Virus record (IMG/VR): IMGVR_UViG_3300044630_006441
Span: 1 to 64,000 of that record
Reading direction: 5' to 3' (one strand)
From: a virus
DNA length: 64,000 nt
A program made the position numbers and the translations under genes. Under the pieces are notes generated by a model, which was given only the letters and a program-made list of their open reading frames with translations, was not told the origin of the DNA and did not search any database. This document shows, piece by piece, positions 9,007-53,600 of this stretch. Each line of letters opens with the position of its first letter. Position 1 is the first letter of the stretch.

Positions 9007-9053
9007 ATCAAAAACTCCTAAAAAGGAAAGGTCACCATATAATACACTTCAAA

Positions 9054-10076: not shown

Positions 10077-10085
10077 GGTGACCTC

Positions 10086-10352
10086 TTAAACTTTCGTCAC
10101 CGTCACCGTTATGCCTGAAGTTGTGGGCACAATGGGTGAAGTGAAGGGAATCACCACAGTCGTGGCAGACTTGACAACAGGTTTGGGTGGGGTCCTGGGG
10201 GGCGGGGCTGGCGGATTTGTCGTGCTTCTCTTGATCACGCCACTTGAGGTTCCACCAGGATAGACCGTCGGCGGTGTTCCCGACCCCTGGCCAGGACAAC
10301 CACCGACACCACCCCTCGGCCTTCTCTTACATCGACGAGAAATACCAGCCAT
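10086..10352 (-). CDS. Small basic Pro/Thr-rich hypothetical protein
   Basis: ATG overlaps the stop of the upstream fibre gene. Confidence 0.45.
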   Translation of the reverse strand: MAGISRRCKRRPRGGVGGCPGQGSGTPPTVYPGGTSSGVIKRSTTNPPAPPPRTPPKPVVKSATTVVIPFTSPIVPTTSGITVTVTKV

Positions 10353-14536: not shown

Positions 14537-14556
14537 GGCTTTATCTCCTACCTATC

Positions 14557-15222
14557 TTACAGGCTATAGCGGTTCCTATGGGCGTGTAAATGCTTGCGAA
14601 TCGTGTCGGGAGTCAGGGCGAAGTTATATACCTTGATTTGGTAAATGTGGCCGTTGAAAGGTTCAGCCCCACCGTTGACGTCTGCGCCAACTCGCCAGTT
14701 AATGTTGGAAACGACGGAGGCCGTGTTGGGGCCGCCGTTGGTGACATACTGGACACCATCAAAATAGGAATTAAAATAGCCACTGCTATCTCTTGTTACC
14801 AAAATATGGTGAGTCCCGTTGATTATTGAGTAGTTGGACGTTGTGATGTAGCCCGTCGAGGCGTTGAGCCAGATGCCCCCGCCAAACAACCAAATACTGT
14901 TACTGTTATAGCCAGGCCCGTAATTGTTGATGATGGTTCCCGTGCCCGCAGCGTTGTAATAGAAGGCTTCAAAGGTGAAAGGGCCGGAGCCAGCAAATAC
15001 ATTGTTGACGGCGAAATCGCCGTAGGCGTTGGAGCCGTTAAAGACAATCCCACCGCCCTTAGTCGAAGTAAACGAGCAGTTGGCATTGAGGGTGACGTTC
15101 CGACCGTTGCCGCTCAGGTCGTACCAGATCGAACCGCTGCCGGGGTAAGAGCGTTTATTGCCCGCATCCAACGACAACAGCAGACCCGTTCCCGTGTTGT
15201 TCGGCCCACCATGAACACTCAT
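14557..15222 (-). CDS. LamG-like domain protein
   Basis: LDAGNKRSYPGSGSIWYDLSGNG...FNGHIYQIKVYNFALT. Confidence 0.8.
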   Translation of the reverse strand: MSVHGGPNNTGTGLLLSLDAGNKRSYPGSGSIWYDLSGNGRNVTLNANCSFTSTKGGGIVFNGSNAYGDFAVNNVFAGSGPFTFEAFYYNAAGTGTIINNYGPGYNSNSIWLFGGGIWLNASTGYITTSNYSIINGTHHILVTRDSSGYFNSYFDGVQYVTNGGPNTASVVSNINWRVGADVNGGAEPFNGHIYQIKVYNFALTPDTIRKHLHAHRNRYSL

Positions 15223-16592: not shown

Positions 16593-17290
16593 TAGAGTCC
16601 AAACCTCCCACGCACAGCATTGTAATTTTTCAATATTTCATCGTCACTCAAGGCGCGGTTATACATACGCACGATGGCGATTCGCCCTGAAAAATACCGA
16701 GGTATCCAACTGGCACCACCAAGGATGATGGGATTGGCCGTGTTGGGAATAGTGGCTGGCATGTTGCCGCCGATGGAGCTGGCGCCCTTGTAAACACCGT
16801 TGGTATAAAGCTTCATGGTTGTGCTGGGGAGGGTCTGAAGAACGACCTGATTCCAAGCGTTCATGGTCGCCGCCCCGGCAATATCACCGTAGCGATCTGC
16901 GGCAGGAGATGACCAATCAAAATAAACGCTTCCGGTTGCGCTAACATAAAGCCTTGGGTTGTCTGGCGTTGCCCCGGAATCCGAGGTGCCACGACTGAAA
17001 AACTCCCCGACCCCAGTCGGATAAAACCAGATTTCGTGCGTGCATCCAGTCGGGGTATCCAGCGAGGCCGAATACGGTATGGAAACATAAGTCGAGGACG
17101 CACTCGTAAAAGTCAGATAGCCGCCGTTCCCAGCGTTGTAGGATGGGCTGTTGGTGAGCGTGCCATTGTTGCCCTGTCCGCTGATGTCGTTGATGGTGGT
17201 GCCCGACCCAGGGTAAGAACGGGGATTGCCTGCGTCAACGCACAGAATCAGCCCAGAGTTTGTTATCGAGGGATTATAAGCTGTTCCCAT
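16592..17290 (-). CDS. LamG-like domain protein
   Basis: VDAGNPRSYPGSG...IAIVRMYNRALS; start at MGTAYNP. Confidence 0.8.
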   Translation of the reverse strand: MGTAYNPSITNSGLILCVDAGNPRSYPGSGTTINDISGQGNNGTLTNSPSYNAGNGGYLTFTSASSTYVSIPYSASLDTPTGCTHEIWFYPTGVGEFFSRGTSDSGATPDNPRLYVSATGSVYFDWSSPAADRYGDIAGAATMNAWNQVVLQTLPSTTMKLYTNGVYKGASSIGGNMPATIPNTANPIILGGASWIPRYFSGRIAIVRMYNRALSDDEILKNYNAVRGRFGL

Positions 17291-21614: not shown

Positions 21615-21629
21615 TTGTCAAACTCCAGA

Positions 21630-35366: not shown

Positions 35367-36206
35367 TTAGTCGTCGCTCAGAATCGTCTCGGCGTTGAGT
35401 ACCGGAAGATCCTCTGCCCCATCCTCGAAGGTGTGTGCGGAACCCAGTCGCTTGTTCTCCCTGTCTGCTGCGTTGCGCAGCAGCTCCATGTGCCGTCCAG
35501 CGAACTCCCTTTCGTCTTCATTTTGGAGCCGTTTAATCGTTCCCAAGAACGTCTCCCGTGAGGACTCCACGCGTGACACACGCTGATCCCTGGTCGCTTT
35601 GAGATCCTTGAGCAGCGCCTGGTGCTTCTCTTCGAGCTTGATGAACTCGGTCGAGCGGGCGGCTTCGGCGGACTTGCAGGCCTGGATCTGCGTCTCGATG
35701 CCCATGACATAGTCGCGGTCGGACTCGTCCATCATGGCGGGGTCATCGTAGCGGCGCAGGAAGTTGTCGCGCAGCTTGGACAGTCTCGCGATATCCTGGT
35801 TGGCATTCTTCTTCGCCTTGCTGTTGCGGTGCATCATGATCTCCAGCTTGATGACCAGGAAGATCTGGGTCTCCTCGGTCACGAGGACGTCCTCGCGGAA
35901 CTGGGTCATGTACTGGGCGTACTTCTCCTCGAAGTAGAGCAGTTCATCCTCGTCGAGTTCGTCCTTGAGCTGCTTCCAGGCCATGGTCTGGCGCAGCTTG
36001 TGGCGGGCCTCCAGCAGGCTTTGCTGGGTTTCCGTCTCGGGGCGGATGGCGGCGTCGACAGGTAGAAGGCTATGTTCGGTCAGGTAGTTCAGGACCTGCT
36101 TCTCGGAACGGTTCAGGCGTTCGGCGATCTGGATGGCGTTCATCTTGGTGGAGTTGGCGCGGATGAAGCCCTTCTCGGCGTTGGATAGCTGGCCTTTCTT
36201 GATCAC
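35367..36206 (-). CDS. Probable terminase small subunit / HTH plus coiled-coil protein
   Basis: N-terminal HTH-like IAERLNRSEKQV; coiled coil; upstream of terL. Confidence 0.5.
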   Translation of the reverse strand: MIKKGQLSNAEKGFIRANSTKMNAIQIAERLNRSEKQVLNYLTEHSLLPVDAAIRPETETQQSLLEARHKLRQTMAWKQLKDELDEDELLYFEEKYAQYMTQFREDVLVTEETQIFLVIKLEIMMHRNSKAKKNANQDIARLSKLRDNFLRRYDDPAMMDESDRDYVMGIETQIQACKSAEAARSTEFIKLEEKHQALLKDLKATRDQRVSRVESSRETFLGTIKRLQNEDEREFAGRHMELLRNAADRENKRLGSAHTFEDGAEDLPVLNAETILSDD

Positions 36207-36763
36207 GACAGGATCTCCCGGATGCACTTCAGAACCATTTCCCTCTTGGCTTTGGGGACGGATTCGCCGCACTTCATGCGGAGGTAGGCCGACCGGATCT
36301 CGGCGGGGAGGAACATGTCGATCTTGGCGATGATCTCGTCCTTGTTCAGCGACTCGGTGAGGTCCTCGCAGATGGCATCGACATCGTCGCGGTCACCGAG
36401 ATCGACGGGGCGCATCAAACTCTGCTTCGCGGAGTTGCGCTTCTTCCAGGCGATGAACTTGGCGCAGTGGTTACCGTCCTCATGACGGCCACCGGCCGAG
36501 CACAGCTGGCACGGCGGGTCGTTCCGGTGGAATCGGTCCCGCTTGAAATTGATCAGCCGGTTTTTGATGTGTGTGTAGAGGAAGTTGGCGAGCGGGCGAG
36601 AGCTGTCGTAGCGGACCACGGCTTCCATGGCGAAGATGAAAGCCTCTTGGCGGATGTCGTCGGAGTCGAAATATCCGAAGGAGAAGGATTTGGCTAAGAC
36701 GTCGCAGGCTTTGTTGACAGCTTCAAGGAACTCTTCTTCGTTAATACCTTCAGGCAGGGCCAC
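36203..36763 (-). CDS. Sigma-70-family factor-like protein (candidate late sigma)
   Basis: Region-2-like DDIRQEAFIFAMEAVVRYDSSRPLANFLYTHIKNRLINFKR; Cys/His insert. Confidence 0.7.
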   Translation of the reverse strand: MALPEGINEEEFLEAVNKACDVLAKSFSFGYFDSDDIRQEAFIFAMEAVVRYDSSRPLANFLYTHIKNRLINFKRDRFHRNDPPCQLCSAGGRHEDGNHCAKFIAWKKRNSAKQSLMRPVDLGDRDDVDAICEDLTESLNKDEIIAKIDMFLPAEIRSAYLRMKCGESVPKAKREMVLKCIREILS

Positions 36764-36941
36764 GAGGCGACTCCTCGGTGGACTCATCATCTTCCTGCAA
36801 AAGCTTGGCGACGACGTGAGAAGGTGGGTCAGGCAACTTCAGTTCAGCCTTGACGGTCTCGGCTAGCTCTTCGCCTGGCCTGCTCTTGACTGTCGACGCT
36901 ATATCCTGCGGAGCAGGTTCTTTAAAGTGATCGTTGTTCAT
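36750..36941 (-). CDS. Hypothetical protein
   Basis: First ORF of the leftward arm; overlaps the sigma gene start. Confidence 0.4.
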   Translation of the reverse strand: MNNDHFKEPAPQDIASTVKSRPGEELAETVKAELKLPDPPSHVVAKLLQEDDESTEESPRGPA

Positions 36942-37514: not shown

Positions 37515-38921
37515 TTGGAGTTTCGACCGATGCGACAGACCGAGCTTTTTACCAGCTTCCGCACCACTTCCGCCCCCATGCCCCAAATAGCGGCGAGGGT
37601 AGCCCAAGGCGAGCTGTTCCCGGAGTTTGCCGGATCCTATGCCCGGAGCATTCCCCGCACCGAGGCCGCAACCGTGGCCGCCGCCATCGTGACCGCCGCC
37701 CAACTGCCCCCACCAGCTGACCCCACCCCCAAGGTGAGAGCGGAGCGGAGGGGGAAGACAGAGAAGATGGCCCGCAAGGTGGCCCGCATGGCCAAGCAGG
37801 CCGCACGCCGGGAGAATCTGCGCCGCAAGGCGATCAACCGGCGAGAAGAGGCGGAGGTGAGGCGAGCGGCTGACCCGTGGGCACACCTGCCCGCCCACCC
37901 CATCGACCGGAACAAGGACCCGGAGAGGGTAGCCGTCAACGCCTACCGAGAAGCCTATCGGCTTGCCAAGGAGGCCAGCACCGCCCCCACCCCGGAGCAT
38001 GCCGCCCGACTGATCGAGCAGGCCCGAGCACACTTCGCCATCGTGGTGGAGGTCACCATACCCGAGACCCGGTTTTCCGCCCGTACTGGTTCACTTGTCC
38101 GGCGTGCCTTGGGCATCTCAAATCCTAGCGCAAACTTGCTCAAATATAGCACCGGCAAGACAGCGGCCGAGCATTTTAGCGCACCCCGGGAGGAAAGGGA
38201 CCTAGGCCGAGGGGTTTACATCGCCGCCCACGCCCGTGGGAATCGTCAGGATGGCGACGCCTACGCCGCAGCGGAGGCCGCATCCGGCCGGGCATGGGTC
38301 AAGATGTTGGAGTACATCAACAACGGCGAGGAGCTGCCCCACTGTCGGCAGGTGGTGGAGAATCCGGAATGCCGGGATCGTAACATGGCCGCATTTATGG
38401 CCGGACTCGCCGCCCGCATCTACCGGGAGGAAGTGTACGGCCGACACCGCGCAAACTGCCGCCGATACAAGAGCGGCAAACCCGTGGCCTTGGGCGAACA
38501 CGACCCCGTCGATTACAGGCAGGATATCGGCAAATACACGGCCGAAAGCGACACCCGCCTTAAGCTTGTCCGGGAACTGGCCCACGCCATGAGTCTGGAA
38601 GAGATGGAGCCTCAGGCCGACCTTGACCCCCTGCGCCGGGTTTACGGATTCGCTGCCCGGTTTGGCGGTAGCCGCGCAGGCCGACCCCGTAAAGGTGAAA
38701 CGGTGACCGAGACCCCATTTCACGAGATCATGGGCAGCAGCAGGGCGAACGGCTCCCGCATCACCGATGCCATGTTGTGGCGGATCATGGGCCACATCCG
38801 GGCCAACCTTGCCGACGACATGGATCTAGACATTATCGGCGAACGGCTCGAGCTGGTCCGGATCATGTACCGGTTCTGCACCTTGCTGAACCTGACCTAC
38901 CGCATCAAGAACAGGGCATGA
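37515..38921 (+). CDS. 468-aa protein, possible highly divergent sigma-70-like factor with N-terminal extension
   Basis: Weak region-2-like (AAEAASGRAWVKMLEY...AAFMAGLAARIYREE) and region-4-like (RFG...TPFHEIMGSSRANGSRITDAMLWRI) segments; start uncertain. Confidence 0.4.
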   Translation: MEFRPMRQTELFTSFRTTSAPMPQIAARVAQGELFPEFAGSYARSIPRTEAATVAAAIVTAAQLPPPADPTPKVRAERRGKTEKMARKVARMAKQAARRENLRRKAINRREEAEVRRAADPWAHLPAHPIDRNKDPERVAVNAYREAYRLAKEASTAPTPEHAARLIEQARAHFAIVVEVTIPETRFSARTGSLVRRALGISNPSANLLKYSTGKTAAEHFSAPREERDLGRGVYIAAHARGNRQDGDAYAAAEAASGRAWVKMLEYINNGEELPHCRQVVENPECRDRNMAAFMAGLAARIYREEVYGRHRANCRRYKSGKPVALGEHDPVDYRQDIGKYTAESDTRLKLVRELAHAMSLEEMEPQADLDPLRRVYGFAARFGGSRAGRPRKGETVTETPFHEIMGSSRANGSRITDAMLWRIMGHIRANLADDMDLDIIGERLELVRIMYRFCTLLNLTYRIKNRA

Positions 38922-39010: not shown

Positions 39011-39335
39011 GCCCAGGCATCCGCCCGCCCCTGGCATGGCACCGACCGCCACCCACCACCAGGGCGACCCCGCCCCCTGGCATCTGGCCCGCCCCCATCG
39101 CCCGCCCCCAACCGTACCGGGCCAACTGGCCCGGTTGACATAATGTGATAGCAAGTGATCGTGAGACAATTTGCCCCGGACATGCACCTAGGAAAGCAAG
39201 AGGAACACGGCCAAGCCAAGCAAACAATTGATAGCAAAAGATATTGAGACAATATTGGCCTAACAGGCACTCTGGACGGAGGGGGAAAGCAAGGTGCCAA
39301 CCCCCACCACAACCAACCCCCAAGGGGACAGACCG

Positions 39336-39989
39336 ATGTTCAAGACCGAAGAGATCAACGCCACCGCCACCAAGAGCCTCGCCAAGGCTGCGGAGATGAT
39401 CAAGGCCAACATACAGACCGGGCCATGGGTGTGGCCAGTACGGGCCATGATGGCGATCTATGACCGGCAAACCGTGCTGGAACAGAACGCCGAAACCACC
39501 AGTGAGGACAACGGGGTGGGGTTCAACGGTCTGGACGCTGGCATCCTGTCCAGTTTCGCCAAGCAGGTGGCAAGGTGGGATGGCACGCCGGAAAGCCAAC
39601 GCCGGTTCCCGGTTCCCCTGTCTGAAAAGCAGCTGGCCATCGCCCGGAAGAAGATGGCCAAGTATGCGGGCCAACTGGCCCGGATCGCCCGGGCCAAGGC
39701 GGAGGCCAAGGCCGCGGAGACCCCTCCCAAGATGGTGGAGGCCCTGCCCGCCCCCAAGGCCACGGAGGGCGGCTACGGGAAAGAGCTGGCCGAGCCGACC
39801 GACAATGACCGGGCATTGAACTGTGTCACCACCATGGACAAGAAGGGCGGTTTCATGTGGTGCCCGGGGTGCAAGGAGTTCAAGGACCTGTCCGAGAGGT
39901 CCAGCATGTTCAACCAGCATGAGAAGGGCAGGGCTTACCTGTGCTACCCATGCCGGGACCAGATCGTCAAGGAGTCTGGTCTGAGCTGA
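39336..39989 (+). CDS. Phage hypothetical protein with C-terminal Cys cluster
   Basis: AIYDRQT..EQ...NGVGFN..DA..LSSFA...LSEKQ; CPGC and CYPC. Confidence 0.7.
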   Translation: MFKTEEINATATKSLAKAAEMIKANIQTGPWVWPVRAMMAIYDRQTVLEQNAETTSEDNGVGFNGLDAGILSSFAKQVARWDGTPESQRRFPVPLSEKQLAIARKKMAKYAGQLARIARAKAEAKAAETPPKMVEALPAPKATEGGYGKELAEPTDNDRALNCVTTMDKKGGFMWCPGCKEFKDLSERSSMFNQHEKGRAYLCYPCRDQIVKESGLS

Positions 39990-40053
39990 CCGGCCCGGTT
40001 CGCCCGGGGGATCTGTCCCCCGGGTTTTGTTGTTCACTCAAAGGAGGTTTGTC

Positions 40054-40290
40054 ATGTTTGAGGTCAAGATCGTAGAGGGTTACATGGATCCGGGTTATTG
40101 CAACCCCAGGCATTCGGGGACCTTCCGAGGGGTGGGGCGGTCCAGATCCCCCAAGACGGCCATGCGTCTGGCCCGGGAGGCCCTCGCGCTGGACTACCGC
40201 AAGGATTTGGACCTAGCTTCGAGCTGTCCGATCTACGATTTCATGGAGATCCGGAAGAATGGCAAAGTGATCTGGCAGAAATACGACTAA
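40054..40290 (+). CDS. Hypothetical protein
   Basis: AAGGAGG RBS. Confidence 0.7.
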   Translation: MFEVKIVEGYMDPGYCNPRHSGTFRGVGRSRSPKTAMRLAREALALDYRKDLDLASSCPIYDFMEIRKNGKVIWQKYD

Positions 40291-40294
40291 CCAA

Positions 40295-40347
40295 AGGGGG
40301 GAGGGGCGAAAGCCCCTCCCCCCTTTTTTTTATTTATTTTTTTATTT
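40295..40347 (+). terminator. Intrinsic terminator (repeated family)
   Basis: GGGGGGAGGGGC-GAAA-GCCCCTCCCCCC plus long T tract; relatives near 43675, 47840 and 50347. Confidence 0.85.
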
Positions 40348-40686
40348 TGAGACAATATTGCTCCAATCTGCACTAAGGGGACCGCCCACTTCCAACCGTC
40401 GCCGCCACGCCCTCCGGGCCATCCCTCCGGGCCATCCCTGGAATCCCCACCCATTCCTGAGATTCTGTCTTGTGTTTTGTACCGGGCCATTTGGCCCGGT
40501 CGAGATCAAATGATAGCAAGCGATATTGAGACAATTTCGCCCTGACCTGCACCTAGGAACCAATCGCCAAACCACGCCACGCCACGCTAACAATTGATAG
40601 CAAACTATGGTGAGACAATATTGCTCTGACAGGCACTCTGATTGAGGGGGGGGAAATGGCCCATCTCTCAAATTGGAGATTCTACC

Positions 40687-40896
40687 GTGCAAACTGAAGA
40701 GTTCCGCATTGCTTGCGAGCGCAAGCTTGACGCATGGGTGCCAGCCTGTGGGGGAACCGAAACCCCATTCAAGGCGCGGAGTGGTGCCATCCTGCTGTAC
40801 TGCTTCAATCCGGCAACCGGGCAACACGCCTACATCGATCAGGGTACCGATTGGGTACTGACCTATGAAGAGGCTGAGGCCCACCTTCAACGGTGA
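40687..40896 (+). CDS. Hypothetical protein
   Basis: GGAG RBS; its stop is the TGA of the repeat at 40894. Confidence 0.65.
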   Translation: MQTEEFRIACERKLDAWVPACGGTETPFKARSGAILLYCFNPATGQHAYIDQGTDWVLTYEEAEAHLQR

Positions 40897-40978
40897 GACA
40901 ATTTTGACCTGACAGGCACTCTGATTGAGGGGGCGGCAAGGGGCCAAACCTCTCAACCGAGTTAACGGGAGTTCTTCC

Positions 40979-41161
40979 ATGCGTATCGGTTTCGACCACA
41001 TTTTTCAGGTCTGGCGTGTGCTGTTCCACGACCAGCTGATTTCTATCGACGGGGTTTTTTCTTGGGACTCCAAGAAACAACTCCATAGGGACCTGGCCCG
41101 CAAGGGTCTGGCCCTGAAAGGTAACAAGGTGGTTGTCATCCGTGAGACAATTTCGGGCTGA
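40979..41161 (+). CDS. Hypothetical protein
   Basis: Ends inside the repeat at 41143. Confidence 0.6.
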   Translation: MRIGFDHIFQVWRVLFHDQLISIDGVFSWDSKKQLHRDLARKGLALKGNKVVVIRETISG

Positions 41162-41225
41162 CAGGCACTCTGAGTGAGGGGGGAAAGGCTCCCCCCTCCG
41201 ATCTTCTCTTGAAAGGAACACGACA

Positions 41226-41522
41226 ATGGCCGAAGTGATTGCGAAGAAGTTTTTCCCCGAAAGCATCATCAACACGGTAAGCGCCAACGGGTTGAACCTG
41301 ACCAAACCCAAGCGCGGGGTCTGGGTGGAAATCTGGAAAAATGAATCCCGGGGCATCTGCTCTGCGGAAATCTACGACGATAACCAGGATGAGTATGCGG
41401 AAATCGGTCTCTGGATCGAAGACGGCGAGCTGGTGGATTATGACGGGGTTTTTGCGATGCCTCGAGAAGTCTGCGCCCTGCTGAAAGAGCAAGGCGTGAA
41501 AATGGGTCCCTTCATCGAATGA
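41226..41522 (+). CDS. Hypothetical protein
   Basis: AAAGGA RBS; flanked by repeats. Confidence 0.7.
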   Translation: MAEVIAKKFFPESIINTVSANGLNLTKPKRGVWVEIWKNESRGICSAEIYDDNQDEYAEIGLWIEDGELVDYDGVFAMPREVCALLKEQGVKMGPFIE

Positions 41523-41606
41523 TGAATGAGACAATATCGGTCTGACAGGCACTCTGGGTGAGGGGGCGGTTTGCTCCCTCACCCTTGTTCAAAGGAGATT
41601 CGTGCG

Positions 41607-41894
41607 ATGAAACAAGAGAATTTCTACAGGCGTGAATTCTGGTTCGACAACGGCTTCGGCTTGTCGGTTGTCTCACACTCTGACAGCTACGGTGGCTACA
41701 AGGGTTTGTTTGAGATTGCCCTGCTTCACCGTTCCGATAGGGATCGGTTGTTTTACGGGCCAAGCTGGGAAGATGTTCGGGGTTACCTTGATTTCGCCGA
41801 TGTGGCCAAGGTGATCCAAGAGGTGAAGGACTATCCGGAAGACCGACCAGTCGGTGATCTGGGCGGACCTTATGCGTCGGTTTTGGTTAGCTAA
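41607..41894 (+). CDS. Phage hypothetical protein
   Basis: FDNGFGLSVV...SYGG..GLFEIA motif. Confidence 0.7.
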   Translation: MKQENFYRREFWFDNGFGLSVVSHSDSYGGYKGLFEIALLHRSDRDRLFYGPSWEDVRGYLDFADVAKVIQEVKDYPEDRPVGDLGGPYASVLVS

Positions 41895-41909
41895 CAAGGG
41901 GGATTTGCA

Positions 41910-42269
41910 ATGAACAAGCTTTTTGTTGATCTGTTCGTCGCCGCCTATATCAAGTGCGGCTTGTGGGCCTGCTGTGATGAGAACGGCGAGCCGCTGGATG
42001 GTCTGTACACCACGGACGATCTGAGCAAGGCAGCCAAACAAAACATCCGAGAGGAATGTCGGTGCTTCATCGACGAAAACGCCGAGCTGCTGGCCGGAAC
42101 GGACGCGGAGGCTGCTGGGCAGGATTTTTACCTGACCAGGAATCGGCATGGTGCCGGATTCTGGGATGGTGATTGGGGTGAGGCTGGTCAACCGCTGACC
42201 GACTCCGCCCATGTGTGGGGGTCGTCTTACTTTTACCCGGATGACAACGGTGAGATTTCGGTGATGTGA
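41910..42269 (+). CDS. Phage hypothetical protein
   Basis: GQDFYLTRNRHGAGFWD motif; stop lies in repeat. Confidence 0.7.
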   Translation: MNKLFVDLFVAAYIKCGLWACCDENGEPLDGLYTTDDLSKAAKQNIREECRCFIDENAELLAGTDAEAAGQDFYLTRNRHGAGFWDGDWGEAGQPLTDSAHVWGSSYFYPDDNGEISVM

Positions 42270-42346
42270 GACAATTTGGGCCTGACAGGCACTCTGGCTG
42301 AGGGGGGCAAGGCGCCCCCCAAAGCCTACGCCAACGGAGGAAAGCA

Positions 42347-42436
42347 ATGCTGCTACCTGTGATCACTCTGGCGGTTGGTTTGGTTTTGATTGAGGCGGCT
42401 GTTCTTTCTATGGGAACCTTGGAGGACTACCAATGA
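42347..42436 (+). CDS. 29-aa hydrophobic peptide
   Basis: GGAGG RBS; MLLPVITLAVGLVLIEAAVLSMGTLEDYQ; ATGA overlap with next gene. Confidence 0.5.
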   Translation: MLLPVITLAVGLVLIEAAVLSMGTLEDYQ

Positions 42437-42750
42437 GCAAGGGCTACAACGGCTGGACGAATTACGAAACCTGGTGTGTCAACCTGTGGATGGACAACGA
42501 AGAAGGGTCCTACGACTACTGGCGGGAAGTTGCTGAAGATGTCTGGGATGCGGAGGACCCCGAAGAGTCCCAGCGCCTGCTGGCCGACCGGATCAGGCAA
42601 CAAATCGAGGAAGGACAGCCTTTGACCAAGGGGCTGTATGCCGACCTGATCGAGGCGGCGCTGTCCGAAGTAGACTGGGATGAAATCGCCAGCCACTTCA
42701 TCTATGACCTGAAGGCGGAAGCCAAGAAGGAGGAAGTCGAGACCGAGTAA
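42433..42750 (+). CDS. Acidic phage protein
   Basis: YNGWTNYETWCVNLW motif. Confidence 0.7.
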   Translation: MSKGYNGWTNYETWCVNLWMDNEEGSYDYWREVAEDVWDAEDPEESQRLLADRIRQQIEEGQPLTKGLYADLIEAALSEVDWDEIASHFIYDLKAEAKKEEVETE

Positions 42751-42804
42751 AGTCAGCGCTTGGGGGTGGGCAAGGTGCCCGCCCCCTTCTTTGTGGAGGA
42801 CGCG

Positions 42805-43669
42805 ATGAAACACGCCAAGCAAGAAGACGGGATTTTCTACGGAACGACCGAACAGGGATACGATCTCTACCTGTGCGAGTCGATGGGTGGGCAGAGTCTG
42901 GTGGCCCGGTTCGGGGATCGTCCGGCCGACTACGAAAGCTGCCCGCTGCTGGTGTTCAGGAGCTGGCTCAAACCCGGCGCATCAATCAAGGTGGGGGCCA
43001 AGTCGTTCCCCATGATCGAGTGGATGGACCACCCGACCACACCGGACTATGTCCGGGGCTGGAAAAAGATCTTTGAGTTGAAAGGGGGTGCATGATGGGT
43101 TGGACGCATTGCCAGAGTTGGAAGAGCAAGGAGCAGGTGGTCGAGATGATCATGGAGGGGCGGAAAGGCCCCTCGGCCATGGCATGGGAGGGGGGAACCT
43201 GGGTCCACTGGTCCGTCGCCACGCTACGGGACGGCAATGAAATCATCTGCTGCTACCTGATCGAGCCATCGGCTCAGGGGTGGGGCTACAAGGGTATGGA
43301 CGAGTGCATGGGACCCTACTATTACAGCTGCCCGCTGGAGTTTCTCGAGCGGACAGACAACAGCCTGTACAAGAACGAGAAATGGCGTCTCGAAGTTCTG
43401 AAAAGGAGGACCGCGGCATGAGAATCAAGAGTCTGGGGCGCCCCCACCTGATCTCGGTGGGGGCTTTTGATTACGCATGGGATTTTGAATGGGAGGACGA
43501 CAACTGGGCAATAGTTCGGGGCTACCGCCACTATTTCAGCGTGAGCGAATCCTTTACGGATTTTGCAGTGGCGAGAGCATCCAAACAGAAATTGTCCAAA
43601 GGACTGAATGGGCCTGACCGACAACCGCTGGTGGACCTGTTCAACGGATTGTGGACCAGGCTGGACTGA
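42805..43669 (+). CDS. Three coupled hypothetical genes (42805-43095, 43092-43421, 43418-43669)
   Basis: ATGA overlaps and RBSs; second gene has WGYKGMDECMGPYYYSCP. Confidence 0.65.
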
Positions 43670-43674
43670 CACAA

Positions 43675-43712
43675 GGGGGGAGGGGCGAAAGCCCCTCCCC
43701 CTTTTTTTTATT
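43675..43712 (+). terminator. Intrinsic terminator (repeated family)
   Basis: Near-identical to the 40295 hairpin. Confidence 0.85.
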
Positions 43713-44217
43713 TGTATTTGGTTTTGAGACAATTACGCCCCAACCTGCACTAATAGATACGCCCACATTTTCCCGTCGCCGCGGCCCGCCAACCTGGCCC
43801 CCCACCCCATCCCGGCCCACCTGGCCAACCCCATCCCCTCTTTTTTCTTCTTGTTTTTGTACCGGCCCCTTCGGGCCGGTTGGCAATAATGGATAGCAAG
43901 CAAGTGAGACAATATCGACCTGACCTGCACTAAGGGATTGCGCACTCCTACCCGCGCACATCAACAACTGCTATCAAATGATAGTGAGACAATTTGCCTC
44001 CGACAGGCACTCTCAATGCCGAGGGCAAAACGCCCAAAGCAAACGAGAAGCTTGTGCGATGAGACAATTTGCTCACGACAGGCACTCTGGTTGAGGGGGG
44101 CAAAACAACAAATTGCCCGCCTTCAATAAAGGGTGCCCAACACGGTGAGACAATATCGCCGCAACAGGCACTCTCAGTGAGCGGTGGTTTCGCTCAATAA
44201 CTTGTAGCGAGGATGAC

Positions 44218-45117
44218 ATGGCTGTTTCCAAGAAACGCAAGAAGGCGGCTTCTTTCAAGCGGGATCAGGCGATGCGGTTGGCCTATATGGTCTCGCACGC
44301 CAAAACCGAATGGGAGGCCATCGAGGCCATCCAGAACACGCTGGACGGTTTACCCGCCGACAGCGGATGGGTGGACTGGGGCAACCGTCTGCTGGCCTAC
44401 CTCAAGGGCGAGGTCAGCACCCCACCCTTGCAGGTGATCAAGGCGGATGGCAACAAAAAGTTGCCCTTCTACGCATGGTCTGTCCTGCCGCTGTTCAGCT
44501 GCCCGGGGAAGGGGGCGTGCGCTAAATTCTGCTATTCGCTGAAAGCGTGGCGGTATCCGCAAGCCTATTTTCGTCAGGTCATGAACACGATTCTCTACCG
44601 GTTCCGCAAGGATCTGGTGGCGGACCTGTTCTTGTCCCTGCCGGAAGGTGTCACCCTGCGGTTGTTCGTCGATGGGGATTTTGATTCCGCCGAGACGGTG
44701 GACTTCTGGTTCAAGCTGCTGCGCCTGCGGCCCGATATTGTGTCCTACGGCTACAGCAAGAGCTGGGATGAGTTGTACGATTACGCCGGTTTGTGGCCGG
44801 ACAACTATGTCCTGAACCTGTCCAGCGGTGGGCGGGTTCGCAAGGTCACCCTCGAGATGATGCAGCAACTGCTGATCACCCGGGGCCGGTTTGTGGCGGT
44901 GCCCGTTGATGCCAAGTTCATCAAGATGGGCAACAAGCGGTTCAAATCCGCTGAATACCACGCCGCGGTGCGGGAATCCGCCCGCCGTCTGGGCCTTGGC
45001 AAGGCCATGAGCTGCCCCGGCAAGTGCGGCAGCTGCATCAAGCGTCCGAGCGGTAACGAGCACGCCTGCGGGTCTCGTCGCCTGATCGGTTTAACCATCG
45101 CCATCGGCATCCACTGA
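44218..45117 (+). CDS. GP88-like Cys-rich phage protein (radical-SAM-like)
   Basis: NKKL...SCPGKGACAKFCY...RLFVDGDF...YGYSKS...NYVLNLS...CPGKCGSC. Confidence 0.65.
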   Translation: MAVSKKRKKAASFKRDQAMRLAYMVSHAKTEWEAIEAIQNTLDGLPADSGWVDWGNRLLAYLKGEVSTPPLQVIKADGNKKLPFYAWSVLPLFSCPGKGACAKFCYSLKAWRYPQAYFRQVMNTILYRFRKDLVADLFLSLPEGVTLRLFVDGDFDSAETVDFWFKLLRLRPDIVSYGYSKSWDELYDYAGLWPDNYVLNLSSGGRVRKVTLEMMQQLLITRGRFVAVPVDAKFIKMGNKRFKSAEYHAAVRESARRLGLGKAMSCPGKCGSCIKRPSGNEHACGSRRLIGLTIAIGIH

Positions 45118-45187
45118 GACAATATCGTCTCGACAGGCACTCTGGTTGAGGGGGGTTTTCGCCCCCCTCTTTGAAAGGAACAAGCAA

Positions 45188-46061
45188 ATGAAGAAGATCA
45201 CTCTGACAAGTCATCCGCTGGTTCACACGCCGGGTATGCTACGGTATGCCGAGGCTGGCTACCAAACCAGCAAGGGACGGGGGCGGACCCCATTCATTAA
45301 CATCTTCGCCGAAGGCTACGGTCTGGACCGCAAGCTGACGGTGGCGTTGCTGTCCGGGAAGATCCCCTACCGGGTGGAAGGGGACACGGTGGTTCTGGAA
45401 GTCAAGGAGGGTCAGGTATGAAACACACGGTGTGGGCAAGGCTTGGAATCAGTATCGAGTTGGACAAGCCGCTTGAGGCATTCGCCAACGAGGATGAGCT
45501 GGTCGAGGCGGCAATCAAGTCAATTCAGGCAAAGCGGTTCGAGGTGGAGGGGGATGCTTATATCCCCGGCCCCTGTCTGGATGACCACGATGAAGATTTG
45601 CAGTTCGACTACCGTGACGATCTGGAACTGGGCAGTTTTTACCAAAACGAGCAGGGGGAAATCCTATGAGCTACATGCGTGAAGCGTTCGAGCAAGTGGT
45701 CCAGGACCGCAAGGCGGTGGTCCGGGAAAGCTGGTATGTCATCCTCTGGGAGGACACCCAGTACTACGGTGGCCCCGAGGAGGGGGGCTGGTACGGCTGG
45801 GATCACGAGCCGGTGGAGTACGCCGTCTACCCCAACGAGGAGACGGCCCATGCGGTGGCCGAGAAGGTGCGGGAACGGGCCGATGAGCTGACCCGCCTTT
45901 CCCGTCGCCGCCACGGGGAGCGGTGTCTGGCCGAGCTGGAATGGTTGGATGCCCGCGGTCTGGATGCGGATTACCTGCCCGAGCCTGACCAAACCAGCTA
46001 CAGCGTGACCGTGGGGAATATGATGCCGGAAGCTGTCTACGGTGGACGACACTACGATTGA
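45188..46061 (+). CDS. Three coupled hypothetical genes (45188-45421, 45418-45669, 45666-46061)
   Basis: ATGA overlaps; last has YYGGPEEGGW; block bounded by repeats. Confidence 0.65.
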
Positions 46062-46137
46062 GACAATATTGTCCGGACAGGCACTCTGATCGAGGGGGGT
46101 GGCAAGGTGCTGCCCCCCTGTTTTTGGAACAGAAAGG

Positions 46138-46728
46138 ATGAACACAATGGACGAACTCATCAACGCTCTGAAGGCTCTGGTCAAGGAAACCATCGAGGAA
46201 GGGATCAGCGAGGCCGACATCTCCCAGAAGGTGGAAGAGGCGGCGGAGGAGCTGGACTTTGAATCGCTGGTCACGGACCATGTGGATCTGGGGGACTTGG
46301 TCAAGGAACATGTGGACTTCGAGGATCTGGCCAACGATGCCATCGCCTGTTCGGTGGAGGAGGTCGTCGAGCGACAGGTCCGGAAGCTGGACTGGGGCAC
46401 GATCATCGGCAGGGAGGTCAACCTGACCGAGACCATCACGGAGAATGTAGACCTGACCGAGATCGCCAACCAGAAGATGAGCGAGATGCTGGCGAAACGC
46501 TGGGAGAACAGTCAGAAAATCCTCGACACCTACATCGAGGATCGGCTGGACATCGAGCTGCGCAGCAAGGTCGAGGTGGTGGTCGAGGAGAAGCTGACCG
46601 GTTCCTTCCATGACATCGACCGGGAACTGCGCGATCAGGTCAACCGGGCGGTGGGGCCGCTGATCGACGAGATCAACGCCCTCAAGGCCCAGCTGGCGAA
46701 GCCCTGGTGGAGGAAGATCTTCGGTTAG
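46138..46728 (+). CDS. Acidic helical protein with ~10-aa repeats
   Basis: LDFESLVTDH/VDLGDLVKEH/VDFEDLANDA; C-terminal KPWWRKIFG. Confidence 0.7.
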   Translation: MNTMDELINALKALVKETIEEGISEADISQKVEEAAEELDFESLVTDHVDLGDLVKEHVDFEDLANDAIACSVEEVVERQVRKLDWGTIIGREVNLTETITENVDLTEIANQKMSEMLAKRWENSQKILDTYIEDRLDIELRSKVEVVVEEKLTGSFHDIDRELRDQVNRAVGPLIDEINALKAQLAKPWWRKIFG

Positions 46729-46790
46729 TCTTCGGTAAGCAGGGGGTGGGTATGGTGCCCGCCCCCTTTTCGTCAACGAAAGGAAGTGCC

Positions 46791-47777
46791 ATGAGTTTTT
46801 ACGCAACGATGGTCGGCGAGATTTTTTACCCTGACCAAGAGGATTTCAACGCTGTCCTGTCCGTTCTGGAGGAAGGGGGCTGGATCGAGAAGGATTTTTT
46901 CCTGGACGGAGGCGGGGACCGGATCAGCAAGACCCCCAACATCGACCGGGAGCAAAGGGTGATCTCGATCCCCCATGCCTGCCACCGCAACTTGTCCGAG
47001 GTGGAGTTCTTCCCGCCGGGGGCGAAGGGCCGGATCGTCGCGACATCGACCGATGGGTGCTTCGAGGGGTGGGAGATCGAGGACGGGGAGAGAGCCAGCT
47101 ACGATCTTGACGAGTGGGCGGCTGAGAACATCGGGGAGAAGTGTCCGGACTGCGATACGGACTTCGACGGGTTCTGTGACTGGAGAAGCATGGTCGAGGA
47201 TGAGTTCCACAACTGCCACAACTAGGAGGACAATCATGAAAGACAGACATCCCGAGGCGATCCAATTCGCCAGACTGAGCATCGGTAGCCGGTTCCGGTT
47301 CGAGAGCGAATGGTCTTTCCCGGGTCTGAAGACCGGGGTGGCCGTCAAGACGGGTGCCCGAGGGTATCGGTACGATGACGGCATGGTGTGTGTGGTGGGG
47401 AGCCAGAAGGTTCTGGTCGTCGAGGAAAAGGAGGCCGCGCAATGATGATTCCCGTGACGGGTTCGGAAGAGTTCAGCCATATCCAGATCAAGGTCACCTA
47501 CTCCAAGGGGGGCCTGAACTACTGGAACTACAAGGAGGAACCGCGGGCGATCTGGCTCAGCGTCACGCCTGTCAAGCTGAACAAGCATGACGGGTACGAG
47601 ACCATCAGCCAGATTGCCGGGACGGGGCTGCGCCATCTGGTCGAGGAGGTGAGCCGCAAATCGATGTCCAAGATCCAGAAGCTGGAGAAGCAGGTCGAGA
47701 AGGAGGTGCTCTACCGTTCCGGAATCACCTGGGATATAGTGAAGAAGGTCGCCGAGCAGAAGCGGTTGACCGTCTGA
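46791..47777 (+). CDS. Three hypothetical genes (46791-47225, 47236-47445, 47442-47777)
   Basis: RBSs and coupling. Confidence 0.65.
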
Positions 47778-48103
47778 GCAACCGAAGCGGGGGTGAGCTA
47801 CAACACCCCCGCCTAGGGCGGGACTAACCAACCCGCATGGCCGGGGGGCGAAAGCCCCCTGGCTTTTTTTATTTGTTTTTTGTCCAGGAAAACCCGCTGC
47901 ACTTATTGAATGTCTTGGTTTTGTCCCAGCCCGATAGGGCTGGTCGGCTTATTTGGCTGAGCAAGCATGAGACAATTACCCGGGAACCTGCACTTATAGA
48001 CCACGCGCCTACAGCAAGCAGGCCGCGGTGGGTGGTTGAGACAATATCGCCCTGACAGGCACTCTCAGTGCGGAAGGAAAAACGCAAACGAAAGGAGCGA
48101 ACG

Positions 48104-50341
48104 ATGAAGAAGTTCAAAGCGACAGTGATTCGCACCGTGATCGAGAGCATCGAGTTTGAGATCGAGGCCAACACGCAGGAGGAGGCGGAGGAGCAAGCCT
48201 ACAACGAGGCTGTCGATGCCAGCGCGGAAAGGTGGGACGGGGAAACCACCGGGATGGAAGTCGATCTGGAGGAGATTTGAGACAATATTGCCCCGACAGG
48301 CACTCTCAGTGAAAGGAGAAAACGATGAAAGTACGCTACGACTTCGACCGGGACCACCAACCCGGCGAATACATCGGGTTCGAGATCCGGGTCTGTTTCA
48401 ATGACGGGGATGACTGCATCTCCAACATCGAGGACGAAGACCACTTCGAGTTCCACAAGGAGGAGGGGACGCATCTGTTCTGGGGCGTGTACGGGGTCAA
48501 CCCGGACGGGATGTCCGAGAGTCTGGGAGACTTCTCCAGCGAGGAGGCGGCTCTGGACACCGTCAGGAAACTGGGGGGCAGACTATGTTCGTCGTGGTGA
48601 TGGAGATCGGTGGGGGCTTCTTCAACACTTGGTCGGAGAATGATGACAGTCCGGTGGTCTTCGAGACCTTCGAGGACGCGGTCATGGAGCTGGCCGAGTT
48701 CTACACGGACTACCGGAAAGAGATCGGTGAGGAACCGGACAGTTTCCGGATCGTCGAGGTGACGGATCGATACCAACACTGGCATGAGGGGGGCGAAGCC
48801 TATGCAGCTTGATCGCAGGGGTGGCGAGGGGGTCCTGTTCCTGACCGACGAGGACCTCGAGCTGGTCGGGATCGACCCGGCCAAGGTCGGGGACGGCGAG
48901 TGGCGGGACATTCTGGATTACCTGAAGGACTACTACAACGACAATTTCTCAATGGTTCTGGCGGAGGCAGCCGAGTATGTCTTGGCCCACGCCAACAAAA
49001 AGGAGGTGGGTGATGATCAAGGTGTGTGATGCCCAGACGATTGCGGCGATTGCCAGCGAGTTCATGACGGACGCACGGTACGGGGACTGGTACAAGCGGG
49101 AGTGCGATTCCCGGTCGGGCACCCCGGGCATCTGGTCCGACATCGGGTCGGTGGGGGTCAAGATCATCGAGGCCGAGAAGGCGTTGAAGCTTGACTGGCA
49201 TCAGTACGAGTTCATGGAGGCGATCTTCGCCATCGTGGACCATATGTACGAGGAGGGTCTGGAGCAGGACTGGACCGCGGTTCTGGAGAGAATCCTGAAG
49301 GAACAGCAAGGAGACTGAGCATGGAATGGGATGTGTGGGTCAAGCAATACCAGGGTGAACTGCTGTCACGGACGGGGCTGTCCCTCGAGGACGGGCCGAT
49401 GGAGTCCACCCTGCGGAGCTTTTTCGACAACGAGGAAACGCCTAGCGAGGCGGTCTCATGGGTGATCGACAAACACGATCTGGATGACCTGCGGGTCGAG
49501 GCTTACGAGCGGGACACCTACAACCGGTTCCGCGAGGAGGCACTCGCCCGGTTCGGGTATGCGCCACCAGCGAGGAGGTTCTAATGGCGGAGTACTGGTG
49601 CGGGGTCTGTCTGGAGCAGATCGACCCCGCCGAGGGGGACATTCACAGTCTGCCCAATGGTGAGGACTGTCATGCGGAGTGCTGCCCGGAGTGTGAGACA
49701 ATTTGCCGGTGACAGGCACTCTGGGTGGGAAGAGGAAACCAAACAGAAAGCGAGGAACGATGAGCGAGAATAGCGTGATCGTGGAGACGGAAGTGGAAAA
49801 CCGCGATGGCAAGAAGCGGTGGTGCGCGGTTGAGGTGCGCTACCGGGGACTGAAGGAGCGGATCGAGTTCGCCATGCCAGCGATCATCAGCCTGCCGCTG
49901 GGGCCGGAACGCAACGACCTGGAGTTGCTGCTGTGCGCCCTGCTGGCGGGCAAGGGGGAGTTCTTCACCCAAGTGACCCGGGCGGTGGTGCTGGACGAGA
50001 AGCGGCAGCTTAAGAAAAAGAAAGGCAAGTGAACGCAACATAACGCAGATTATCGGACACTGTTTGAGAAAGGAGCGACGATGTACCAAGAAGAGTGGGG
50101 GCAGAGGGCAACCCCGATGGATGCCTGCCGGGAATACGCGCTGAACGCGGGGAGGGAGCGGACGGAATCGGCCTGGATCTTGACAGACTTCGATGCGTGG
50201 ATGCCGAACCCCTTCTACCAGGGTCCGCCGGTGCCACACCCGGAAGATTGGTATGACGACGATGTGGGGAGTGAGCAACCGCCACCGCGGCCAGTCGTCG
50301 AGAAACAGGCGCCGCCGGTCGATGAAGACATCCCGTTCTAG
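48104..50341 (+). CDS. Nine small, mostly acidic genes (48104-48280, 48325-48600, 48585-48812, 48802-49029, 49013-49318, 49321-49584, 49584-49712, 49760-50032, 50081-50341)
   Basis: RBSs, overlaps and consistent codon usage. Confidence 0.6.
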
Positions 50342-50631
50342 GACAAGGCTGGGGGGCGAAAGCCCCCCGGCCTTTTTTTATTTATTTACCTGGAGGACCC
50401 CCATGCACTTATCTGTCGCCGCAAATGTACCGGCCCGACAGGGCCGGTTGGGCTGGGGGCTGAGACAATATCGTCCCGAGCTGCACTGAGGGGGTACCCG
50501 GTGGAAATCCGCGAACCCGCGGTGAGATAATTTCCCTGCGACAGGCACTCTCAGTGCGGGGGGCTTTTCAATGAACCACGCGGGGTGCCTGAGACAATAT
50601 CGCTCCGACAGGCACTCCAGACTGAAGGGAG

Positions 50632-53600
50632 GTGCGTGTGAAAAAACGCATTACGGTGACTTTGGAAATTGACTTCAGCCTTCTGCGTGTGGCGAAGGCG
50701 GACATTGTGGAGCGGATCGGAAGCGAGGAGGGGGGCACCTCACTCGCCTACTTGGCCAGCCTCTTGTGCGACATACAGGATCAGGCAGCCAAGCGGGTGG
50801 GGGATGTCGCCGTCTTCGGGACGATGTTCGACCCGTGAGACAATATTGCTGCGACAGGCACTCTCATCGAGGAGGGAAAACGATGCGCGGATGGAAAGAA
50901 TGGTACGACGATGACGAGGAGGAGGTGTGGCGGGTGCTGGCTGGCCTGTCGCCGGAAGAGGAGGAGGTGGTCAGGGAATTCAACTGCGGTGCGCCCCTGC
51001 CGGACGACGACAAGCAAGAGCGGAAGGGGTGGGCCAAGGACGAGCTACCTTTCTAAATCTTAAGGAAGTGTCTTTTTTCACCTATGTGGATACAAAGGAG
51101 ATTGATATGCCGATCTATCTGATCAAGCAACGGGTTGATGATAGCGATATTATGGTGACAAGTGAGTCAGTTGGCTACTTCGAGGGGGAACCCCAGGACG
51201 CGGACGCGGTGGTCAACGCCCTGAACGAGCGGGATCCGGAGGTGGGAAAGACCGAACTTTTCGGGTATAGACGGAACTGCTACTTCCGTGTAGAACTCGA
51301 CAAAGTGACCTTGACAAAGGTAAATGATTGGTTCCCACAATAAGCGACTTGACGCATCTCTAGTCGCAGATTGAACTTATATCGATATATCAACAATATA
51401 AACGCTGATAAAAGGTAGTATCAGTTGTTTTTGAGGGTCTGCGCTTGTTTTGTGAAAATCCGAGGTTCAGAGAAAAGGAGGCTTTTATGCTCAAGGACCA
51501 AACAGTCAAGGAACTCCGCGATAGTGGCTACAGCGTTGTGATCTTCTCCCCTGAGGAACTCCAAGGTATTAACCTCTACTACTTTGAGGATGAATTGGTT
51601 GGTAGGGGGTGGGAGATTATTGACGGCATGAGGCAAGAGCAGGGCAAGAAGGAATAGGGGTGGGGAATAGCCCACCGGGCAAGCAAAGGAGACACAGAGA
51701 TGGCAAAGTTCAAGTATTCGGTTACCCAGCAGATCATGGCATCCATCGAGGTGGAGGTCGAAGCCGACAACGAACAGGAGGCTCGCGAGCTGGGCAGGGA
51801 TCTGGCGTTTTCCATCCCCTTGTCGGACGGGTGGGAGACCGACGATGAAATCGTGGACGAGGAAGTCGAGAAGGAGGACTAGACATGACGGTCGATGAGC
51901 TGGTCAGGGATCTGTGCGCGGCCATCCTGGAAGGCGACGACAGGGAAACGCTGGAGGGCAAGGCTGCGTTCTTGCAGGCGGTGATCGATGAGGACTGGGG
52001 TTCCATAGACTCTTATTCCCCTGTCTACGAGGAGGGCAGATACCTGGCGGGGATAACCAAAAGAATCCATGCCAGATGAGATATTTTCGCTGGTTCAGGC
52101 ACTCTGATCAGAAAGGAGATTTGAGATGAATCGCGACATGATCGAGCAAAAGGTGGGCAAGACTTGGGACACCAACGAGCTTCAAAAGGTCTTCGAGGTT
52201 CTTGGTTTCAGTATGGGTTGCTGCGTGGTCCGCAACAGAGAAACGGGCAAGCGCGGCAGTCTTGAGTTCGACCGATTTGACCTGGAGGGGGCCGGGGCAA
52301 CCCGCCTCTATCACAGTTTCGTAGAAGGTTAATTTACAGAAAGGATAGAAAATGGACGAGCTGATAGACGAAGTCTTTAGGGTGAAGCGAATCTACAAAC
52401 TGAGCAACGAAGACATGATTCGGTACCTTGCCGAGTTCATTGTTGACGCAGGTTTGGAGATCGAATGCCAGGGTTATTTGGGCGGGATCGAACCACAAGA
52501 GGGGTGAGACAATATTCGCCTAAACGACACTCTAAGTGCGGCGAAAACCAGATTATAAACCGGGGTTAACGGGGGGTCTGGTTTAAGCCGCATATATAAG
52601 CTGTGCAGTCTTAATCAAGGAGATCATATGAAAAGATTGACTTATAAGGATATTCAAGACCTACCTCAAGACCATCCAGACTATATCAGGTTCATGGAGG
52701 AGGCTGAGGCGGAGTGCAATATCCCGGTCATCAGGCCGGACGACGACGAGGAAGGCGTGGGTTACTTCAACCGCTATATCGCAGGAGACAGATGATGAAA
52801 CTGAAAGCTGATCTGAGCTACGACGATCGTTTCGATGGTTTGTCGGCAAAGTTGTTCATTGAAAACAACATCGTGACGGTTTTGTTCAACTTAATAAGCA
52901 AAGAATGGGCGGCGATCTCGTTCGAGATGGGTGAGAAGGAAGGGGACCTCAACTTCTACAGGGTCGCGGACAAGATTGGCACCCAACCAAAAATCAGTCT
53001 GGACGAAGCAATCGCAGTCGTCCGGGCAACCATAGCAAAGGAGGCGGTGTGAGCCAGGACAAACTAATTGAGACGGTCAAGGGATGGATAGGGCGATGGA
53101 AGATCGGTGGCGACAACCACTTCTTCACGCCCAAGGAATGGCAGAAGCGGGGCGAGGAGATCGGTTCTTACGCCGATCTCACCCTGACCTGCGAGGGGCA
53201 GCTAAACCACATCCTCAACGGATATGTCTCCGACTCCAGGCATCTGATCGATGACTTCAGTCGGGTCGTGAACGGGACGGGATACTACTGGGAATGGGGC
53301 TACGCTTGGTCAGTTCACTTTTACAAGATGGAGGAAAAGAAATCATGAATTACTCTCGAAGGTTTGAGTTTCGCGGCCTGCCTTTCATCTATGAGTTCAG
53401 CAACGACGACAGCATGGATTGCGCTGAGTCAGCGATCTCAGGTCTGTCTGAGCAAGCCACCAAGGCTATCCAAGACGATGAGTTTGAAACTGCCGTTTGC
53501 GAATATGCAGAAGAACAGGCGGCATCGGGATGGATCAACGCAAAGGAGGGGCAGAGATGAAACCAATGACCATGAGGCAGCTTGACCGGGTTCGCGAGGA

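Follow-up and report, generated by a model that had tools for sequence, protein, structure and literature searches.

A reiterated promoter-like repeat that overlaps upstream stop codons in the hyperplastic early region of an uncultured 145-kb phage

In T4-type phages, promoter-early stem-loops (PeSLs) combine a promoter with a poly-G/poly-C stem-loop, start at the stop codon of the upstream gene, lie in hyperplastic genome regions and are associated with insertions and deletions (indels) (Arbiol et al. 2010, PMC2839356; Comeau et al. 2014, PMC4122927). Exchange between neighbouring PeSLs gives rise to mini-circles. An array of comparable architecture is described here for the IMG/VR record IMGVR_UViG_3300044630_006441 (G000), a viral sequence of 145,196 bp estimated to be 97% complete, the first 64,000 nucleotides of which are the stretch analysed (the window). 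Its principal element is a 29-base bipartite repeat that is reiterated in a single orientation between small genes and in most cases provides the stop codon of the gene that it directly follows.

Other known systems share particular features with this array. Phage middle and late promoters are read by phage-encoded sigma factors or appropriators, for example SPO1 gp28 and T4 MotA/AsiA. Integrons are likewise co-oriented arrays of small genes parted by a repeated element, and their cassettes are promoterless and depend on a common promoter, Pc. The stoperators of cluster A mycobacteriophages, which are temperate, are 13-bp sites bound by the immunity repressor and distributed genome-wide; they are asymmetric, co-oriented with transcription and situated in short intergenic spaces (PMC9283540).

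The array was compared with those of three related phages. G001 is a complete 149-kb genome that is collinear with G000, with 60–95% protein identity except in the array, while R3 and R4 were found via homologues of a 463-aa protein encoded directly upstream of the array (Table 1). All relatives are metagenome assemblies, and R3 contains an N-gap with identical repeat-bearing sequence on its flanks.

The repeat, its leader modules and the stop codons

A search of G000 for TGAGACAAT-N9-ACAGGCACTC with up to three mismatches returned 23 matches, all of them on the plus strand between positions 39162 and 52532, against 0.00 expected from 100 shuffles. A looser scan added type B copies at 40348, 40527 and 50461, bringing the total to 26. 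The array spans 13 kb, and no copies were found outside it anywhere in the 145,196-bp genome. The 5′ block, TGAGACAAT(A/T)T, is −35-like, and the −10-like 3′ block, located about 16–17 bp from it, reads GCACTCT in type A and TGCACTAAGG in type B, the latter variant following the pattern …C.TGCAC(T/C)(A/T)AGG. Two conserved blocks with promoter-like spacing, a common orientation and a position upstream of genes together make up the layout of a sigma-70-family promoter. Folding of the motif as RNA yielded no consensus pairs among 17 type A copies and no Rfam match.

A megablast search with the array against the phage collection gave no match, and a metagenome pattern scan for the motif recovered three short contigs and nothing more. 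The metagenome contig Ga0315899_10053753 (4.2 kb), which has no nucleotide similarity to G000, carries four to five copies of TGAGACAAT-N9-..C(C/A)(T/G)GCACTCT within ~900 nt (positions 2300–3200) in a part with few open reading frames (ORFs), so the motif family is wider than the phages compared here.

Within the early region of G000, the repeat recurs ahead of nearly every one to six genes. The first-pass annotation of the window had described each unit as a repeat, usually a hairpin, a ribosome-binding site (RBS) and one or more genes, and this anatomy is borne out by the layout of repeats and leaders: type A copies start 47–88 nt upstream of an RBS-bearing start codon, and a strong G-run/C-run hairpin begins at about +33 behind approximately nine of the 19. 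In five places, the copies are part of longer leader modules (Table 1), in which an intrinsic terminator, where there is one, is followed by a conserved hairpin, GATAGCAAGC, a type B copy, ~50 nt and one or several type A copies. Four strong intrinsic terminators are present, and each has only the hairpin, type B and type A between itself and the next gene, so some element located there must restart transcription; the modules are the sole conserved elements after each terminator that could do so.

The conserved hairpin of the modules, GTACCGGGCC-N4-GGCCCGGT, precedes type B at a constant position in each module, occurs with the same flanks in G001, R3 and R4, and is terminator-like on neither strand. 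An N4-like virion RNA polymerase that would read these hairpins was considered and ruled out, since the 4149-aa ORF of G000 is a tape measure protein by PHROG match.

Eleven copies abut the end of a gene. As the first-pass annotation had stated, eight of them share their first TGA with the stop codon of that gene, two are entered by a gene whose stop is a TGA further inside the repeat, and the remaining copy begins 4 nt past a stop. Frame 0 is used by eight of the ten ORFs entering the repeat, where one-third would be expected (binomial p = 0.003; p = 0.009 if calculated for 8/11), and every reading frame is closed within the type A consensus, with stops at +0, +16/+28 and +32. That TGA is a genuine stop in this phage follows from the R3 and R4 orthologues of gene 40979–41161, which have TAA or TAG at the identical +16 position. 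Flush stops were found at 8/11 such junctions in G000, 6/10 in R3, 6/7 in R4 and 2/6 in G001, where the remaining four of the six genes end at a TAA within the motif. Judging from the aligned junctions, the stop overlap is inherited vertically and under constraint, since each of the four phages has a flush junction behind its GP88-family gene and the orthologues of gene 40979–41161 keep their stop at +16 as TGA, TAA or TAG. The overlap fits genome compaction as well as cassette mechanics, and 4-nt gene overlaps are frequent at the repeat-free gene pairs of the region.

In about 70 other viral contigs with GP88 homologues, these genes do not end in the motif. One GP88-bearing phage (IMGVR_UViG_3300037631_003745, positions 7200–18200) has co-oriented intergenic repeats of another kind, consisting of CCTGAACCC-type runs and a ACCCCTAAAGGGGT hairpin, and one of these runs begins at the stop codon of GP88.

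Turnover of the array among related phages

Alignment of relatives, which the first-pass annotation had proposed as a check, showed that hyperplasticity is confined to the array, the genomes being collinear elsewhere. Between G000 and G001 it is the sole non-syntenic part (39–52.5 kb), with ~10 of ~41 genes in common and in a different order, and the same array architecture is present in G001, R3 and R4.

Five gains, losses or relocations of units between relatives have a repeat or a leader at their borders. A three-gene block of G000 (45115–46059) and a one-gene block (50590–50836) are each flanked by two type A copies, G001 having just one motif at the corresponding place. R3 carries an extra gene with its motif relative to G000 (21350–21622) and an extra unit, again of the gene-plus-motif kind, relative to R4 (14929–15216). 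The fifth event concerns a homologue of gene 41226–41522, which is relocated in R4 and flanked there by duplicated hairpin-leaders. In the comparison of R3 with R4, the closest informative pair, breakpoints are weakly enriched at repeat junctions: eight of nine repeat junctions and five of 12 others are broken (p = 0.067), with p = 0.024 for both-orthologue junctions only. G001 is too divergent for a breakpoint test, nearly every junction being broken. The earlier suggestion that units are gained, lost or shuffled by recombination at the repeats is supported in part, by the five repeat- or leader-bounded events and by the R3/R4 enrichment, while it does not extend to the many breaks without a repeat or to the G000/R3 comparison.

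No match to PF00589 or PF00239 was found in the 145-kb genome, whereas the controls were positive in 14/14 and 12/14 genomes, respectively. The lack of a recognisable integrase, reported in the first-pass annotation for the window, therefore holds for the whole genome, and the wider recombinase search proposed there found no tyrosine or serine types. RecA is encoded; its gene, at 96095–98233 and thus beyond the window, is split by a LAGLIDADG/Hom_end intein. Two small array genes, 48104–48280 and 51700–51882, are paralogues with 47% identity, and in G001 their family is represented by three paralogues in tandem or close together, so gene duplication also adds to the turnover of the array.

The motif itself differs between the phages in a concerted manner. 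While TGAGACAAT is kept in R3 and R4, the 3′ half reads ACAGGCACTCT in G000 and, in type A, CCTGCACTYT in R3, i.e., CCTGCACT(C/T)T, and CTGCACAAGGG in R4; G001 has TGAGCCAAAC...CTGCAAT, and its motif as a whole is TGAG(C/T)CAAAC-N8-AACTGCA(C/A)T, with two classes and 28 copies. At orthologous junctions, the 3′ half tracks the genome in which a copy resides and not the junction, all copies of a genome changing together. Such concerted, lineage-specific change of the 3′ half suggests a phage-encoded reader, and if the copies are promoters, the change of about 25–33 of them at once would represent a natural experiment in the co-evolution of promoters and their reader.

Proposed promoter function and rival explanations

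We consider it probable, with moderate confidence, that the repeat is a phage-specific bipartite promoter in a compact genome, that gene ends have been compacted into this promoter, and that units are occasionally recombined at the promoter–hairpin–leader composite. The promoter interpretation draws on the spacing of the blocks, which resembles that of −35 and −10 elements, on the modules that would restart transcription after terminators, and on the gene content of G000, in which three genes with sigma-70 region 2 and no RNA polymerase gene were found. The repeat would then be a promoter of two classes, usually with a G/C hairpin and an RBS leader behind it, and host RNA polymerase would probably read it with the aid of a phage-encoded specificity factor. 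Owing to the extreme compactness of the genome, upstream genes would have come to end right at or within the promoter, so that the TGA at its first position would serve as their stop codon, and the additional stops at +16 and +32 would shut the other two frames. The composite would at the same time represent reiterated homology, on which general recombination, for which the phage RecA is available, might now and then delete, insert or relocate promoter-led units, as proposed for the PeSLs of T4-type phages.

The likeness to PeSLs comprises a reiterated intergenic composite of a promoter-like element and a G/C stem-loop abutting the upstream stop codon, its concentration in a hyperplastic region full of small orphan genes, and a lineage-specific consensus. 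Five events between relatives are bounded by the repeat or its leader, as indels and replacements are by PeSLs, but the association with breakpoints is only partial here; recombination at PeSLs is ascribed to the general recombination system of the phage, as would be the case here. Unlike that of PeSLs, the putative promoter described here is not sigma-70-like but a 29-bp phage-specific bipartite motif of two classes, and the stop codon lies inside its conserved block. The phage is also unrelated to those carrying PeSLs, with its 4149-aa tape measure protein, remote terminase, PolIII-alpha replicase and sigma-like genes. The system resembles the modular shuffling at PeSLs and not an integron, and the PeSLs of T4-type phages are its closest known counterpart. 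If the proposed explanation holds, shuffling of the PeSL type would not be limited to T4-like myoviruses and their sigma-70 early promoters; it would be a trait on which reiterated promoters converge in the hyperplastic regions of phages, the example here being an unrelated, uncultured lineage of 145 kb that has a promoter specificity of its own. The overlap of promoter and stop codon would plainly illustrate how extreme compaction puts one sequence to two uses, and the motif would help in practice to annotate the transcription units of these phages.

We infer that the 463-aa protein is a candidate for the specificity factor. It is restricted to this phage group, with seven clusters among 5.8 billion proteins, and evolves fast, since its identity between G000 and R3 is 45% although the neighbouring DNA is 88% identical. 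The AT-hook is deleted in the G001 homologue, and the G001 motif has no AATWT tract. The protein gave no match in Pfam, PHROG, PDB sequences, PDB profiles or the protein atlas. Its AF2 model had a pLDDT (predicted local distance difference test score) of 55, the best Foldseek match had an E-value of 0.24, with sigma chains appearing only in noise rows, and the hhalign comparison with a phage sigma factor returned a probability of 2.4%.

Several observations weigh against the proposed explanation. As regards the promoter and its reader, a sigma fold is not detectable in the 463-aa protein, the 36-kb sigma (Table 1) does not covary with the motif, and none of the three sigma-like genes is assignable as the reader. 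Sigma-70-like sites number six, with 6.0 expected in shuffles, and the motif blocks differ from TTGACA/TATAAT. As regards recombination, ten population variants with 98–99% identity show no unit polymorphism: they keep their gene order and differ in intergenic indels of 1–4 nt only. The lone mosaic patch among these variants (46439–46725) falls inside a gene. Between G000 and R3, breaks are not enriched at repeats (9/14 repeat junctions broken, 23/26 repeat-free ones), many replacements occurred within operons lacking any repeat, and in three R3/R4 indels the left break alone is in a leader, the right one being at an ordinary RBS junction. Moreover, breaks beside promoters could reflect selection for expression and not recombination at the repeat. 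The small-protein gene calls and orthology, which were obtained with our own script, are approximate.

Part of this pattern would be expected if the repeats were promoters with no role in recombination, gene turnover taking place at any gene boundary by illegitimate or microhomology-based events and selection keeping those insertions that come to lie behind a promoter. The unenriched breaks at repeat junctions in the comparisons of G000 with R3 and with G001, the replacements inside repeat-free operons, the right breakpoints at RBS junctions, the stable population variants with their intragenic patch and the 4-nt overlaps common elsewhere in the region all agree with such pure compaction. However, the five events with repeat or leader copies at both borders and a single copy in the other genome bear the signature that unequal exchange between direct repeats leaves, and breaks between R3 and R4 are enriched at repeat junctions; we regard compaction as the sole cause as rather unlikely.

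A more far-reaching hypothesis, which we put forward only tentatively and find doubtful to about the same degree, is that the repeats together are the targets of a self-contained and rapidly co-evolving transcription system of the phage. The ~25–33 promoters would be recognised by the 463-aa protein or by some other phage factor, their −10-like half would switch specificity jointly in each lineage, and promoter, hairpin and leader together would form a small mobile regulatory cassette inserting at stop codons. The 44-nt unit at 48278, missing at the same R3 junction, can be cited as a precedent for such an insertion. With SPO1- and T4-type phages, the array shares high-information, phage-specific bipartite promoter-like sequences that recur in a single orientation in genomes with genes for small sigma-like proteins; it differs in that the cognate factor is only a candidate and that the elements lie in the earliest-looking region, overlapping gene ends.

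Two other kinds of reader were considered and rejected. The sequence AGGCAC-N5-TTG recalls the −24/−12 elements of sigma-54 promoters, but the −12 GC is absent in most copies, and type B has no GG. For a T7-like RNA polymerase, PF00940 gave no match, which is a weak negative, as the control genomes were silent too; the large proteins of the plus strand are otherwise identified.

Compared with the promoter interpretation, the idea that the repeat is a stoperator-like site, at which a phage regulator would block or modulate elongating RNA polymerase between genes, is improbable. The element resembles stoperators in being asymmetric, strictly co-oriented with transcription and located in short intergenic spaces at gene ends, and some of the array genes are members of families that take their names from mycobacteriophage L5 proteins, GP88 and, in R3, Phage_L5_gp82. 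It is, however, 29 bp long and bipartite with promoter-like spacing, as opposed to 13 bp; its copies occur solely within 13 kb of the early region and not genome-wide; its tandem clusters directly follow terminators, where transcription needs to be restarted and not blocked; and the genome yielded neither an integrase nor any other indication that the phage is temperate.

An even smaller likelihood attaches to a function at the RNA level, in which the transcribed repeat would be a processing or translation-insulation signal that stops all frames and whose cleavage sets the 5′ ends of mRNAs. Stops in all three frames of the type A consensus and the constant distance to the next RBS would suit such a role, but the repeat has neither a conserved secondary structure nor an Rfam family, its tandem copies sit in untranslated modules after terminators, and its block spacing is typical of promoters. 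Finally, the integron-like array of the first-pass annotation, with the repeat as an attC-type site served by a dedicated recombinase, has a negligible probability, because, beyond the formal resemblance of co-oriented small genes parted by a repeat, the 97% complete genome encodes no tyrosine or serine recombinase of the IntI kind by searches with positive controls, the asymmetric repeat has no self-complementary, attC-like fold, every unit starts with its own promoter-shaped element and RBS where integron cassettes are promoterless, many breakpoints lie outside repeats, and the ten close variants show no unit polymorphism.

Genome context and coordinates of the features

The regions 1–37 kb and 123–145 kb of G000 carry minus-strand genes of virion proteins (terminase, portal and the 4149-aa tape measure protein), and 37.5–123 kb carries plus-strand genes, with the small-gene array first and then genes of ribonucleotide reductase, RecA with its intein, DnaB, a split PolIII-alpha and glycosyltransferases. 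PolIII-alpha is encoded in two ORFs beyond the window (105250–107175 and 108072–109730). The terminase has just 25–29% identity to those of the nearest cultured phages.

Table 1. Positions of the repeat array, its leader modules, the copies at gene ends and two neighbouring genes in the window
Feature	Position	Strand	Remarks
Repeat array	39162–52537	+	26 co-oriented bipartite repeats (19 type A including 2 degenerate; 7 type B); punctuates ~41 small genes
Module 1	39114–39281	+	conserved hairpin (39114–39135), type B (39162), type A (39245)
Module 2	40285–40650	+	intrinsic terminator, type B (40348), conserved hairpin (40479–40500), type B (40527), type A (40611)
Module 3	43664–44182	+	terminator, type B (43725), conserved hairpin (43859–43880), type B (43905), three type A (43985, 44060, 44146)
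Module 4	47827–48073	+	terminator, conserved hairpin (47923–47944), type B (47968), type A (48037)
Module 5	50335–50626	+	terminator, conserved hairpin (50427–50448), type B (50461), type A (50523, 50590)
Type A	40894–40922	+	TGA stops gene 40687–40896; R3 and R4 orthologues also flush
Type A	41143–41171	+	gene 40979–41161 runs in as ...RETISG* and ends at internal TGA (+16); TAA/TAG there in R3/R4
Type A	41527–41555	+	4 nt past TGATGA stop of gene 41226–41522; R3 retains a mere remnant
Type A	42267–42295	+	TGA stops gene 41910–42269
Type A	45115–45143	+	TGA stops GP88-family gene 44218–45117; flush in G000, R3, R4 and G001
Type A	46059–46087	+	TGA stops gene 45666–46061; right border of 944-bp block absent from G001
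Type A	48278–48306	+	TGA stops gene 48104–48280; 44-nt unit (putative promoter and RBS) missing at conserved R3 junction
Type A	49694–49722	+	gene 49584–49712 runs in as ...CETICR* and ends at +16; not at orthologous R3 junction, present in G001
Type A	50836–50864	+	TGA stops gene 50638–50838; with copy at 50590 bounds one-gene unit absent from G001
Type A-like, degenerate	52077–52105	+	3 mismatches; TGA stops gene 51885–52079
Type A-like, degenerate	52505–52533	+	3 mismatches; TGA stops gene 52352–52507; G001 orthologue also flush with motif
463-aa protein	37530–38921	+	directly upstream of array; AT-hook-like RAGRPRKG; basic Ala/Arg-rich N-terminus
Small sigma-70 region-2 protein (36-kb sigma)	36203–36790	−	heads virion-gene block; 86–96% conserved among relatives; no covariation with motif

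The two ends of the record (3–1799 of the window and 143400–145196 of G000) have a 1.8-kb stretch in common with 87% identity, and both match one gene of G001. They are not a clean terminal repeat; either the two stretches are paralogues that have diverged, or two strains were joined in the assembly. The 4149-aa ORF (131777–144226, minus strand) has its tape measure PHROG matches at the N-terminus alone (residues 58–464) and a G001 homologue that is merely 41% identical; if it is a true tape measure, the phage would have an exceptionally long tail.

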